Counted from the first letter of the stretch, positions 19,401 through 22,925 are shown. The stretch: 64,000 nucleotides of DNA from Gammaproteobacteria bacterium (GCA_030148325.1 JASBTR010000145.1:1548-65547); one strand, 5' to 3'. The notes: generated from the letters alone by a model not told the origin. Translations and numbers: made by a program.

Positions 19401-21377
19401 TTATCTTGCAGATAGTTTCTGCGGGCGTTGTCGGGAAGATTGTAACTCAAATTTGGAAATACGCTTTCCGGTTTCAAGTACCTTGTTTGTTAGGGTTTTG
19501 TATAATCTTCTGCTCACTGATTCCAGCGTATTATAGGTTTTTTTCGATTCATCGATTTTACCCTGCTTGAGTAGAACGTCAATTTTTCTTATGTAGGGGG
19601 AGAGATGATTCGGGTCCTGTTTTATAGAAAGATTAATATATTCCAGCCCTTCATCGAGTCTTCCCTGGGAGGCCAGGTTATTGCCAAGGTAGTAATGGAA
19701 GCGTGCTGAGTCCGTTGCTTTCAATGCAGTCCGAAGCCATGCTTCGGAAATGCTTTGCAGATCTTTGCAGGATGAATCTATGCATTCGTTCATTTTAACA
19801 AGAATATTTGTGAATATAATGCTGTCGGGTTTTTTCGTGATTGCCTTTGTTATCTTTTTTTCAAGGAAATCAGGTATTGGCGTGCCGCTGGACATTGTTT
19901 GAAGGTATACCTTTGCAAAGTATCCCGGTTCATGTGGATTCAGAAGTGCAGCGCGTGTGGCAGAAAATAAGGCGGCTTCAGGCATATTTTGTGCGGTCTG
20001 AATGGTTGACAGGTCTGACCATGAACGCGCTGATGCCGGGTGATTTAGGACCTGTGCCTCAAGAAGTGATTGAATATTCCTCCATTGATGACTGCGAACA
20101 GCAGTAATAGAAGATAGAAGGGCGATAAAGACCGGGAGCAGAAGCCATATTCGCCGCAGCTGATATTTTTGGTGAATCCAGAGCAATATATGTATGATGA
20201 CAAGGATAACACCAAGACTGGCAAGGTAGTTGCGATGCTCAAAAACAAGATCCAGGGGGAAAACAGTGGACTCAATCAGATGGCTTGAAAAAAACCATAT
20301 AATACCCAGCGATAGAAGAGGCTGCTTGCGCCGTTTCAAAAAGGCCAGAAAAATAAGGGTTGCAATAAAAATTATTGAAACAAGTGTTGTCGCAGGTTGC
20401 AGCAGGGAATGTGATAATTGAAAATCATCATGGTGTATACCAAAAGAATGTGGCGATGGTAGAAGTATCTGGCCTATATAAAATACTAATATGCGACTTT
20501 CAGTTAACAGCCGTTCAAACAGGCTGAAATTCCGCATTTGATACCCGGGTAGTGAATATATTACCACCATAGTGAGCATTGATGCCGCGAAGAGTCCGGT
20601 CAATGCCAGTATAGCAACGCGTGTTTTTGGGTTGATTTTTTTCCAGTTGGACCAGGGTGAGGTGCCTGAATAAAGGGATAATTCAAGTATAATGATATAG
20701 ATGGGAATCAGTAGCCCGGTTTCCTTGCTCAACAAGGAAAGAAGAAATCCCGTTGGAATTAATGCCGCCCATACAATTGATTCCGGTTTTTTTTGTGCGA
20801 TAATAGCATTACGCGCCTGAATAAATGATATTAGAGTAAATAAAATAAAAAATGCGGACATGGAGGTCATGCGCTGAACGACATAAAGTACACTGGTCAG
20901 TTGTATTGGTTGTACCAGCCAATACAATGCTATGCCACTCGCCAGCAATGTCAGTGATCTTGTGCTGCTGTGGTTAAAGGAATAACCGGGGTTTATCTGG
21001 TTTATTCTGATTAAAATCAGGCGTACAAACCAGAGCACCATTAAGCCGTTGATGGTATGTATTATTATGTTGAATAATTTAAATCCATAACTGCTTTCCA
21101 TGCCGCTTTGGGAAAAATAGTAATTCAGGGCGAAGCTCATCGCCGGTATTGGGCGCCCCAAAATACCTGAATCATTGGAGTTGGCCGCCTGTCTTATTTT
21201 TTCGAGGCTTGGCTGATTTATGTGGATATTTTTATTAAGAACCAGGCTGGGAATGTCATCCAGAATAAAAGGCCCGTTTATTCCGGGATAATAAATCAGT
21301 AATGGGAGAAAAATAAGGAAAGCCAGTAGCAATGGCTGGGGAAATCGGAATGAATCGAATTGTGTTATACGCTTCAC
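19401..21377 (-). CDS. Polytopic membrane protein with TMTC/PMT-like GT-C N-terminal region and C-terminal TPR repeats (candidate protein O-glycosyltransferase)
   Basis: First-loop acidic motif GPFILDDIPSLVLNKNI resembles the FvFDD..ai.N motif of TMTC-like GT-C enzymes. About 10+ TM segments, and TPR-like repeats in the last 200 aa. Confidence 0.6.
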   Translation of the reverse strand: MKRITQFDSFRFPQPLLLAFLIFLPLLIYYPGINGPFILDDIPSLVLNKNIHINQPSLEKIRQAANSNDSGILGRPIPAMSFALNYYFSQSGMESSYGFKLFNIIIHTINGLMVLWFVRLILIRINQINPGYSFNHSSTRSLTLLASGIALYWLVQPIQLTSVLYVVQRMTSMSAFFILFTLISFIQARNAIIAQKKPESIVWAALIPTGFLLSLLSKETGLLIPIYIIILELSLYSGTSPWSNWKKINPKTRVAILALTGLFAASMLTMVVIYSLPGYQMRNFSLFERLLTESRILVFYIGQILLPSPHSFGIHHDDFQLSHSLLQPATTLVSIIFIATLIFLAFLKRRKQPLLSLGIIWFFSSHLIESTVFPLDLVFEHRNYLASLGVILVIIHILLWIHQKYQLRRIWLLLPVFIALLSSITAVRSHQWRNIQSLLEAQVLNHPASARSWSDLSTIQTAQNMPEAALFSATRAALLNPHEPGYFAKVYLQTMSSGTPIPDFLEKKITKAITKKPDSIIFTNILVKMNECIDSSCKDLQSISEAWLRTALKATDSARFHYYLGNNLASQGRLDEGLEYINLSIKQDPNHLSPYIRKIDVLLKQGKIDESKKTYNTLESVSRRLYKTLTNKVLETGKRISKFELQSSRQRPQKLSAR

Positions 21378-22234
21378 TTCTTTTCTTCAGCTTTTTCTTG
21401 GAGTATTTCGTCACGTTGGCGGCGTCTTTTAGCTTCTTCCTTGCCCCAGATGATCTCATCAATATCCGGTGGCGGGATATCCAGTACGTCGATAAATTCC
21501 AGTGTATTTTTATTCAGCGCGATGATGAATTTTCCATAACGGGCATGTAACGGGAAATAGGCGATGGATTCCAGTTCAATTATATGGTTTTTAACAAAAT
21601 GTTGGTACTCCCTGTGCCATGCATCCTTTTCGCCTTCAAGATAGGCGTCCATGTCGATATTGAATCGCATTATGTTGTTGAGTTGTTTATAGTCAAATTT
21701 CCTGTAGCGTTCCCCCATGAAATGAATGGGTTGTGAGGCGACAGCCTTCATTAACAGCGCCATATATTCCTGCTCGTTACTTGGGGTATCGACATAGATT
21801 TTTTTGGGCATATTTGAAGGATCGAGTTCATCGATAGCCTTTTTGTCAAGCCCTGTTTCGGGTATCTGGTAATAGGCCATGGGGTAGAAAATACCATCGG
21901 CAAACACAGCGAGATAGGGACGCTCGTTGTGTACCGCCCAGATCCCCCAGGCCAGGGCGGAAATCTGAGCCAGGGCGATCAGGGAGAGATCTACTCTTAA
22001 AGAAAAAGGTTTTTTCTGTGGATTAAAAACGATGAACGTCAGCGTCGGCCCCAGAACCAGATCCACACCTGCAATAATGCGAATCCCCTGCCAGCCCCCA
22101 TCGGTATTGAAGAAGGGCATGGGATACCACTGGAATACGAAATAAAGGACAATAAAAAAAATGATCAGGTTGAGGCTAAAATGTATTCCGAAAGCGTTGA
22201 ATTTGGCTATCAGAAGTCTTTTGTTCATCATCAA
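21374..22234 (-). CDS. Membrane protein, possible TfpX/TfpZ/FimB-like pilin accessory protein
   Basis: Sits directly downstream of a pilin gene. N-terminal TM plus WYPMPFF...GVDLVLGPTLTFIVFNPQKK pattern recalls the pilin accessory family. Assignment is from memory of motifs only. Confidence 0.4.
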   Translation of the reverse strand: MMMNKRLLIAKFNAFGIHFSLNLIIFFIVLYFVFQWYPMPFFNTDGGWQGIRIIAGVDLVLGPTLTFIVFNPQKKPFSLRVDLSLIALAQISALAWGIWAVHNERPYLAVFADGIFYPMAYYQIPETGLDKKAIDELDPSNMPKKIYVDTPSNEQEYMALLMKAVASQPIHFMGERYRKFDYKQLNNIMRFNIDMDAYLEGEKDAWHREYQHFVKNHIIELESIAYFPLHARYGKFIIALNKNTLEFIDVLDIPPPDIDEIIWGKEEAKRRRQRDEILQEKAEEKK

Positions 22235-22330
22235 TGAATTATGATTAATTTAGTCGGAGTTATGGTTTGTATTATGAACCGGGATTTCAGCAAAATAGAC
22301 AGGGCATTTATTTCGATAACGATAGTTTCG

Positions 22331-22370
22331 AAAAATAGAGAGCCCCCTCATTCTGTATGAGGGGGTTCTC
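22331..22370 (-). terminator. Strong intrinsic terminator downstream of pilin paralogue 2
   Basis: On the minus strand: GAGAACCCCCTCA-loop-TGAGGGGGCTCTC followed by TATTTTT, about 20 nt after the pilin stop. Confidence 0.8.
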
Positions 22371-22388
22371 TATACTGGGCGAGATAAA

Positions 22389-22925
22389 TCAATATCTGAG
22401 CGTAACGGTAGTCGCTGATAAATCCAGATAGGCAGGGCGCGACAGGCTTATGGTATCGCCGGTCGCCCAGGCAGCACCGGCCATGGTGACAGCAACGCCA
22501 ACTACGCCAGTAACGTTGTTTGCAGCTGTTGCATAGGGCACACCACCGCCTTCCGGGGCGCTAACGGTACAGTTACCAGCCGCGAAACATAAGCCACCCG
22601 GATCCTGGTTCAGAGCATTTATGATATTTGTTACATCATTTGGAAACTCGGCCTGGTTACCACCGACGGCCCCCATTTCGTTGGCGGACGAAAAGGCGAT
22701 GCCCATGGAGCGGCGGCTGGCGTCAGAGCGAAAACCGGCCGTAATCCAGCGGCGTGCGGTATCGAGGTGATCGGATACCTTCTGCATACGTGCGTTGCGG
22801 ATATAGCCGTTATAGGCGGGGATAGCGATGGCGGCGAGGATGCCAATAATGGCGACCACGATCATCAGTTCGATCAGGGTGAAGCCCTTGTTCTTTCTGT
22901 TAAGTTTGATGTCTGAAAGTGTCAT
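22389..22925 (-). CDS. pilA: Type IVa pilin paralogue 2 (canonical G/FTLIELM)
   Basis: [43 protein letters not shown] with Glu5. Has its own sigma-54-type promoter and terminator. Confidence 0.9.

Follow-up and report, generated by a model that had tools for sequence, protein, structure and literature searches.

What does a membrane protein of 658 amino acids do beside the gene for a type IV pilin? We address this question in a 64,000-nucleotide stretch of DNA from a Gammaproteobacteria bacterium (GCA_030148325.1 JASBTR010000145.1:1548-65547), called the window in what follows. Here the gene for a prepilin, pilin 2, is followed on the minus strand by an open reading frame (ORF) for a 286-amino-acid protein and by that of the 658-amino-acid protein (19401-21377), which overlaps its neighbor by 4 bases; ORFs and strand are exactly as a first-pass annotation of this DNA had described them (Table 1). 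We read the 658-amino-acid protein as a periplasm-facing GT-C enzyme that O-glycosylates the adjacent pilin with a polyprenyl-monophosphate-linked sugar, and we put the probability of this reading at roughly 0.6. The predicted fold, the conserved motifs on its periplasmic side, the domain architecture and the gene order (pilin, one to three copies of the GT-C gene, GT2 gene) come directly out of the comparisons described below.

Pilin glycosylation influences phage resistance, immune recognition and pilus function. To our knowledge, the well-studied enzymes that carry it out are of two types only, the Wzy_C oligosaccharyltransferases and a single GT-C example, TfpW. The module in the window is most likely a widespread, unstudied route for putting sugars on bacterial pili: it occurs at 467 places in species-representative genomes of sulfur-oxidising, methane-oxidising and hydrocarbon-degrading Gamma- and Betaproteobacteria, and the literature that we searched holds no description of a module of pilA, a GT-C/tetratricopeptide repeat (TPR) gene and a GtrB-like GT2 gene.

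Fold and conserved residues of the 658-amino-acid protein

In the full-length protein, Pfam recognises only the TPR in the last third (TPR_2, 6e-8 at residues 558-591). The full-length AlphaFold2 model, with a predicted local distance difference test (pLDDT) score of 91, consists of some 11 membrane helices and, after them, a domain of helical repeats. Because a Foldseek search with this model returned TPR proteins only (a consensus TPR and the OGT TPR, E 2e-5), residues 1-435 were modelled separately (pLDDT 84.5). With this transmembrane (TM) domain as the query, ranks 1 to 9 in the PDB are all GT-C enzymes: Chaetomium Pmt4 (9i5k, the best match), human STT3A, yeast Stt3, Pmt1-Pmt2 (6p25) and PglB. 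Each of the nine has a probability of 1.00, with E-values from 2e-3 to 6e-2 and TM-scores (query) of 0.33-0.48, and below rank 9 the probability sinks to 0.16 or less for most matches, which are to unrelated membrane proteins; ArnT (0.38) and EmbB (0.25) are also listed there. As modelled, the TM domain is a GT-C fold, on modest scores and an exclusive list of best matches, as the first-pass annotation had proposed.

That annotation had named an O-antigen ligase or polymerase as the fold that would speak against it, and the same result bears on a Wzy_C-type transferase such as TfpO, PglL or TfpM. These are the commonest pilin O-oligosaccharyltransferases and are also sited beside pilin genes, yet the Foldseek list holds no ligase or polymerase fold and no WaaL match, Pfam finds no Wzy_C, whether in the full protein or in the TM domains of 20 members, and the window has no Wzy_C homolog, tblastn with E. 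coli WaaL also being empty. We therefore give a Wzy_C enzyme next to no chance here.

To place the conserved residues relative to the membrane, we took the AlphaFold2 helices as TM segments and oriented them by the positive-inside pattern. The cytoplasmic loops are short and basic (KRRKQ, for example), and the basic N-terminus is predicted to be cytoplasmic. Residues 33-51 read INGPFILDDIPSLVLNKNI, and the motif that they contain, GP[FYWL]xxDD, follows TM1 in all 40 homologs (33-55% identity), with D40-D41 invariant. This topology puts the pair in the periplasmic loop 1, the side on which it had been expected; GT-C enzymes of class A (PMT, STT3/PglB, ArnT, TMTC) carry their acidic catalytic motif (DD, DE or DxD) in the first loop outside the cytoplasm. 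Other residues invariant in these homologs are R75-P76, R169, K218-E219, H316-D317 and E380-x-R382-x-Y384, and the 61 invariant positions divide into 38 periplasmic, 22 in TM helices and one cytoplasmic. The TPR domain has an invariant CxxxxC (C532-x4-C537), which fits a periplasmic location. Its mean identity is lower than that of the TM domain (30% vs 43%), which fits co-variation with variable pilins.

Could such a protein be no enzyme at all? A TPR scaffold or a pilus assembly factor, with the GT-C-like fold as a relic, would recall the TfpY-like accessories beside pilins, which serve assembly and not modification (PMC11841053), and would agree with the fact that no sequence profile sees a glycosyltransferase family. 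However, the invariant residues are the metal-, phosphate- and sugar-binding residues of TMTC, PMT and ArnT and they face the periplasm, and a scaffold would leave the co-occurrence with a polyprenyl-phosphate sugar synthase (see below) without explanation. We consider this possibility very unlikely.

The relatives of the TM domain are numerous. Its profile alone finds 51,258 cluster representatives at E<=1e-3 and 8,654 at 1e-30, a very large family without a curated model (no Pfam match in 20 members tested), and a tblastn search of plasmids and phages gave no match. Homologs of the 658-amino-acid protein are named in databases either 'tetratricopeptide repeat protein' or, by transfer of KEGG orthology, 'protein O-mannosyl-transferase'.

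How close is the protein to the eukaryotic TMTC1-4, which are O-mannosyltransferases of cadherins in the GT-C/PMT clan (PMC7801869)? These have 11 TM helices, a cytoplasmic N-terminus and an extracytoplasmic C-terminal TPR domain, and the predicted topology of the 658-amino-acid protein has the same layout. The published motifs M1-M7 (Table 4 of PMC7801869) were compared by eye, not statistically, with the invariant columns of the 40-homolog alignment. M1 (DD, loop 1) is present as D40-D41, M4 (KE(T/Q)xxT, loop 3) as KET, and M7 (ERxxY, loop 5) has a close match in E-H-R-N-Y. The end of M2 (SHKSYRP(LCVLTSFRLN), loop 1) is present as RP....SF.LN, its H-K not being conserved. At TM3/loop 2, where TMTC has M3 (RxD), HPI...V..VV.R provides the R without the D; M5 (DW, loop 4) is replaced by HDD; and M6 was not identified among the invariant columns. 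The motifs follow the same order in both proteins, at positions 40/75/169/218/317/382 here and 52/93/167/219/330/404 in TMTC1 (PMC7801869). Pfam DUF1736, which covers the TM7-TM8 loop, and PMT_2 match neither the full protein nor 20 relatives, so that membership of TMTC in the Pfam sense is not established. M1, M2, M4 and M7 are colinear and M3 and M5 partly so, neither Pfam family is found, and we regard the earlier label 'TMTC-like' as a fair description. Unlike in TMTC, the acceptor here would be a pilin and not a cadherin, and the lipid undecaprenyl and not dolichyl. The module would link bacterial pilin glycosylation to the TMTC/PMT branch of GT-C enzymes.

Gene order in related loci

Now we consider the genes that accompany the GT-C gene. 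The 467 related stretches come from a scan of one genome per species, and gene order was counted in 83 non-redundant loci among them, a locus being testable where it has enough flanking sequence. Gammaproteobacterial carriers are Thiohalophilus, Acidiferrobacterales, Sulfuricaulis, Cycloclasticus, Ectothiorhodospiraceae and Methylococcaceae; betaproteobacterial ones are Gallionella, Nitrosomonadales, Sulfuricella, Undibacterium and Dechloromonas. The closest relative among the matches listed is from Thiohalophilus (52%), and Pseudomonas appears neither among the best 80 of the 467 loci nor in the homolog matches listed. A prepilin gene lies on the same strand, no more than 1.4 kb upstream of the GT-C gene, in 59 of 62 testable loci (95%; median gap 123 bp), and this pilin is usually the canonical pilA downstream of pilS-pilR.

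This position bears directly on the acceptor. The enzyme could instead act on a pilin-bound glycan from another transferase, on several periplasmic proteins or on a surface polysaccharide, the adjacency to pilA reflecting co-regulation only. A superfamily of 51,258 cluster representatives surely includes other acceptors, the Sulfuricaulis limicola locus encodes a Wzy_C/TPR protein of possible PglL type, and the classic GtrB/GT-C pairs modify O-antigen (PMC11127046). On the other hand, 95% of the testable close relatives follow directly after a prepilin gene, the window has no Wzy_C homolog, and TfpW, alike in architecture and position, acts on the pilin itself. We judge an acceptor other than the pilin to be improbable.

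As a separate observation, the surroundings of the pilA-GT-C-GT2 module in two loci include, at a distance of a few kb, a gene whose product has a Wzy_C domain and TPRs and could be a ligase or a transferase of PglL type (L003, Sulfuricaulis limicola, 14611-16542; L026, 10035-11975). Two pilin or surface glycosylation routes may coexist there.

The first-pass annotation had also linked the GT-C gene to a distant GT2 gene, and this is the best supported of its claims. An ortholog, 55-67% identical to the window's GT2, is found in 42 of 58 testable loci, and in 37 of the 58 it follows the last GT-C gene directly. The GT2 protein itself has a GT-A domain and a hydrophobic C-terminus with TM helices. 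Its best NCBIfam match is AglJ (TIGR04182, 9e-36, below the cut-off, residues 6-281 of 290), and its alignments with the AglJ, PpgS and ArnC models span the entire protein, the C-terminal TM part as well. The best PDB sequence matches are Dol-P-Man synthase (5mlz, 2e-14), ArnC (9bhc, 8e-13) and GtrB (5ekp, 5e-10), so that its closest solved relatives are all polyprenyl-phosphate glycosyltransferases, in keeping with the GtrB/ArnC/DPM1 type assigned to it before. Since it misses all curated NCBIfam cut-offs, no specific sugar can be assigned. From the co-occurrence of this GtrB-like GT2 with the GT-C gene we infer a polyprenyl-phosphate-linked donor for the 658-amino-acid enzyme.

Closer inspection of the loci raises a further question: is it a single sugar that is transferred? 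The GT2 had been taken as the sole partner of the GT-C enzyme. The partnership is conserved, but in the window and its nearest relatives a cassette of flippase, glycosyltransferase and methyltransferase genes lies between the two, so that an oligosaccharide is at least as likely as one sugar. In the window's clade, which includes L001, L002 and L004, the pilin gene is followed by the FimB-like gene, the GT-C gene, the flippase gene, variable glycosyltransferase/methyltransferase genes and, on the opposite strand, GT2; the window follows this order save for an insertion sequence (IS). In loci of simpler layout a GT4 gene follows the GT2 gene (24 loci), sometimes with genes for an AsnB-type amidotransferase, a TylF-type methyltransferase, an epimerase or a DegT aminotransferase.

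A variant of our reading with another donor would make the 658-amino-acid enzyme an en-bloc O-oligosaccharyltransferase: the cassette would build an oligosaccharide on the lipid, Wzx would flip it, and the GT-C enzyme would then hand it over to the pilin in one piece. The bracket of GT-C and flippase genes on one side and GT2 on the other encloses a variable glycosyltransferase/methyltransferase/AsnB cassette in the window, L001, L002 and L004, the GT4 genes and their companions in the simpler loci point the same way, the nearest folds include the en-bloc transferases STT3 and PglB, and the GT2 has its best NCBIfam match in AglJ, the Haloferax enzyme that starts an oligosaccharide on dolichyl phosphate. 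A WecA/WcaJ-type phosphoglycosyltransferase was found neither in the window nor in 85 loci, by tblastn with two E. coli queries of limited sensitivity. This conserved bracket and the lack of another priming enzyme favour an oligosaccharide more than was first assumed. Against this, TMTC-type motifs with a GtrB-type partner are typical of single-sugar transfer from polyprenyl-phosphate monosaccharides, in many loci the genes within reach are limited to pilin, GT-C and GT2, the cassette might belong to the synthesis of a different glycan, and the phosphoglycosyltransferase search could have missed its target. We hold en-bloc transfer to be less likely than not; its carrier would be either undecaprenyl phosphate (Und-P) primed by the AglJ-like GT2 or undecaprenyl pyrophosphate (Und-PP) primed by a transferase encoded elsewhere. 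More doubtful still is the fully specified version, in which an oligosaccharide on Und-P is primed by the AglJ/GtrB-like GT2, flipped by Wzx and moved en bloc to the major pilin by the TMTC-like GT-C enzyme while the TPR reads the pilin.

The number of GT-C genes also varies, with one copy in 63 loci, two in 14 and three in 6. Two or three tandem GT-C/TPR paralogs, each with its DD motif intact, lie between pilA and GT2 in many relatives, among them L003 (7956-11871), L005 (8001-12095), L014, L018, L022-L024 and L080. These paralogs may differ in sites or sugars.

The companion that gives the window's cassette its second gene is less regular. The 286-amino-acid protein matches the NCBIfam model 'TfpX/TfpZ family type IV pilin accessory protein' over its length (residues 11-255 against model positions 1-239 of 240), though its 129 bits do not reach the curated threshold of 200; Pfam PF27166 FimB is found in its homologs, and its gene adjoins pilin 2. 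The TfpX/TfpZ/FimB family assignment made at first reading is right; members of this family typically have about three TM helices at the N-terminus and a periplasmic domain. Such a gene is restricted to the window's own clade (9 of 85 loci), and more distant FimB-like proteins showed no linkage to a GT-C gene, which makes it an optional companion outside the core. By analogy with TfpY, for which an accessory role in pilus assembly and not modification has been shown (PMC11841053), the TfpZ-like protein is more likely a pilin assembly accessory than a transferase. Past the end of the family model, the protein continues in a highly charged C-terminal tail (KEEAKRRRQRDEILQEKAEEKK; 21374-21470) some 30 residues long, which is common to close relatives.

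A proposed route and its relation to known systems

How could these parts work together in a pilin O-glycosylation route? On the cytoplasmic face, the GT2, going by its family, would take a sugar from its nucleotide-bound form and attach it to undecaprenyl phosphate. The position of the cassette suggests that in this lineage its GT2 and GT4 enzymes and its methyltransferase may extend or decorate the lipid-linked sugar, which the Wzx-type flippase would carry to the periplasmic face. By analogy with PMT, TMTC and ArnT, the GT-C domain would grip the lipid phosphate through K218/E219, H316/D317 and R382, D40/D41 in loop 1 would act as the catalytic acid/base pair, and the glycan would go to Ser/Thr of the membrane-anchored pilin before assembly. 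The TPR domain would hold the pilin as the acceptor-binding part, and the TfpZ-like protein would assist in pilin assembly without being a transferase.

Several points weigh against this route. The Foldseek E-values of 2e-3 to 6e-2 are modest and the TM-scores are around 0.45; 20 TM domains match no Pfam family at E up to 10; a hidden Markov model of the TM domain finds no chain among PDB sequences at E up to 10; and when the TM-domain alignment is compared with E. coli ArnT in hhalign, the probability is 0.2, a weak test with a single-sequence template. An NCBIfam search of the 658-amino-acid protein likewise gives no GT-C family match. Because no sequence profile recognises the TM domain, the fold assignment rests on structure prediction and motifs. 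The gene context has its exceptions too: 16 of the 58 loci, for example Cycloclasticus, are without a nearby GT2 ortholog, and in the window the GT2 gene is 8.0 kb from the GT-C gene (stop to stop) and on the opposite strand. With the IS between the GT-C gene and the cassette, the system may be impaired in this genome and its downstream genes uncoupled. Finally, pilin glycosylation is for every member a prediction from genes and predicted structure.

The closest known system is that of TfpW, with which we compare the protein by published description only. In P. aeruginosa group IV strains (Pa5196, PA7), TfpW is a GT-C D-arabinofuranosyltransferase of the pilin, needed for pilin glycosylation; it has 646 amino acids, 11 predicted TM helices, an essential DDX in loop 1 and a periplasmic C-terminal TPR domain, its gene lies in a pilin cassette with tfpX, and its donor is polyprenyl-monophosphate-linked (bioRxiv 10.1101/2020.04.19.049825). 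The 658-amino-acid protein fits this description in size (about 650 amino acids), its 11 TM helices, its predicted GT-C TM domain with DD in loop 1, its periplasmic TPR and its pilin cassette with a TfpX/TfpZ-family gene. The TPR had been put forward as what sets the protein apart from TfpW; since TfpW carries one itself (bioRxiv 10.1101/2020.04.19.049825), it is a similarity and not a difference.

The gene order does differ, as had been seen, being pilin, TfpZ-like, GT-C here and pilA-tfpW-tfpX in P. aeruginosa. Furthermore, the YX6PFX7P motif of TfpW (periplasmic loop 4) is found in 0 of 40 members, although Y300-x6-P307 is kept and Y-x6-P-[RS] is present in loop 4 of 39 of the 40. The nearest folds are PMT and STT3, whereas ArnT is the reported template for TfpW. 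TfpW depends for its donor on a phosphoribosyl pyrophosphate (PRPP)-dependent synthase, DprE1/DprE2 and a GtrA-like protein. With a GtrB-type GT2 in their place, a hexose-type sugar is expected here and not D-arabinofuranose, and no donor genes for the latter are among the island genes at 10.0-26.5 kb, all of which are accounted for. The module would probably glycosylate the pilin in the manner of TfpW but in a new form, marked by TMTC-like motifs and a donor enzyme of GtrB type.

Other systems share parts of this plan. PMT/POMT enzymes (with Ppm1 in actinobacteria) are the best fold match and O-glycosylate Ser/Thr from a polyprenyl-phosphate sugar made by a DPMS-type GT2; they differ in that the TPR domain here stands in place of MIR and that no PMT Pfam match is found. 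The GtrA/GtrB/Gtr* systems of Shigella and Salmonella pair a GtrB-type synthase with a periplasmic GT-C transferase (PMC11127046), but their acceptor is O-antigen where here it would be a protein, their GT-C enzymes differ from ours by its TPRs, and a GtrA-type flippase was not found here (tblastn with ArnE/ArnF negative). The GT2 and AglJ of Haloferax volcanii can be aligned from end to end, and we infer from this a parallel with AglJ/AglB, where a lipid-monophosphate-primed glycan is extended by glycosyltransferases, flipped and moved by a GT-C enzyme, although that system is N-linked, archaeal and dolichol-based. TfpO/PilO, PglL, PglS and TfpM glycosylate pilins and are often encoded beside the pilin gene, but are Wzy_C enzymes that use Und-PP-linked glycans, and there is no Wzy_C here. 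The pilin-modifying Ogt of cyanobacteria (PMC9306852), a soluble enzyme of family GT41, has no relation to this system.

If the proposed route is true, a large family so far unannotated (the 51,258 cluster representatives above) would gain both its function and its acceptor, and there would be a simple bacterial model of how TPRs guide the choice of protein substrate by TMTC-type enzymes, as well as a new transferase/donor pair for glyco-engineering. Should the less probable en-bloc transfer from Und-P prove correct, it would represent an undescribed kind of protein O-glycosylation in bacteria, with bacterial counterparts of the TMTC O-mannosyltransferases acting on a known, tractable acceptor, and the O-oligosaccharyltransferases would gain another class, its tandem paralogs providing diversity of site or sugar.

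Pilin 2, the cassette and the surrounding island

The features of the window are collected in Table 1.

Table 1. Position of the pilin 2 module, its presumed partners and nearby features in the window.
Feature	Position	Strand	Remark
GtrB/ArnC/DPMS/AglJ-like GT2, presumed polyprenyl-phosphate sugar synthase	10503-11375	+	Pfam Glycos_transf_2, 2e-31
GT2 glycosyltransferase, variable cassette	11446-12384	+	
GT4 (Glycos_transf_1) glycosyltransferase, variable cassette	12381-13526	-	
GT2 glycosyltransferase, variable cassette	13510-14418	-	
Class I S-adenosylmethionine (SAM) methyltransferase-domain protein, 575 amino acids, variable cassette	14549-16276	-	
Wzx-type (Polysacc_synt) lipid-linked glycan flippase	16280-17575	-	equivalent place in L001, L002, L004
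IS element, not part of the system	17681-19363	-	37-nt imperfect terminal inverted repeats
Periplasmic TPR domain of the 658-amino-acid protein, residues 436-658	19401-20072	-	invariant C532-x4-C537
Predicted GT-C-fold TM domain of the 658-amino-acid protein, residues 1-435	20073-21377	-	11 TM helices; D40-D41 in periplasmic loop 1
TfpX/TfpZ/FimB-family pilin accessory protein, 286 amino acids	21374-22234	-	NCBIfam NF041437, E 2e-37
Terminator-like hairpin, 9 pairs (6 G-C), then T-rich tail	22343-22365	-	between pilin 2 and TfpZ-like gene
Pilin 2, type IVa prepilin, presumed acceptor	22389-22925	-	178 amino acids; prepilin leader; Pfam N_methyl, 4e-11
Sigma-54-type -24/-12 box, TGGCACGCACCATGCA	23056-23071	-	131 bp 5' of pilin 2 start codon

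The presumed acceptor, pilin 2, has a prepilin leader and N-methylation motif of the classical type (Pfam, NCBIfam). The sigma-54 box before it is one of only 5 sites with at most one mismatch in the 64 kb; the pattern is not enriched over shuffles across the whole window, so that position is the sole argument for this box. A hairpin between pilin and accessory gene is also the layout of published pilin-accessory cassettes (PMC11841053). Taken together, the strong hairpin and the box suggest that pilin 2 is the major pilin and depends on PilR, and that transcription reading through into the accessory genes is attenuated. The pilS-pilR genes of the window are at 34575-37577 (plus strand), 11.6 kb from pilin 2, unlike in most relatives, where pilS-pilR-pilA-GT-C are contiguous. 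A second prepilin gene, pilin 1 (9557-10018, minus strand; leader ...HTG/YTLIE), lies directly 5' of pilB-pilC-pilD (5334-9322, minus strand).

The IS sits in the spacer between the GT-C and flippase genes, which in the relative L001 measures 38 bp from GT-C stop to flippase start. Its transposase is split in two overlapping ORFs, a DUF772 part (18720-19310) and a DDE_Tnp_1 part (17878-18741).

The whole module lies in an island of low G+C (10000-26500; 0.38-0.47 vs about 0.52 in the flanks), with pilin 1-pilBCD on one side and yfiH-rluD-bamD on the other. The glycan genes of this island differ from those in the same place in L001 and L004 (three GT4, AsnB, a methyltransferase), and the island behaves like a variable glycan locus. 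Just 5' of pilin 2, in its lowest-G+C part, are two minus-strand ORFs absent from L001 and L002, the closest relatives: a weak methyltransferase-like one of 469 amino acids (25034-26443) and one of 580 amino acids (23282-25024), which combines some five TM helices at its N-terminus with a domain of the sulfatase/alkaline-phosphatase kind (LtaS/OpgB/EptA-type architecture). PptA in Neisseria adds a phospho-form, and by analogy the 580-amino-acid protein could add one to the pilin or its glycan.

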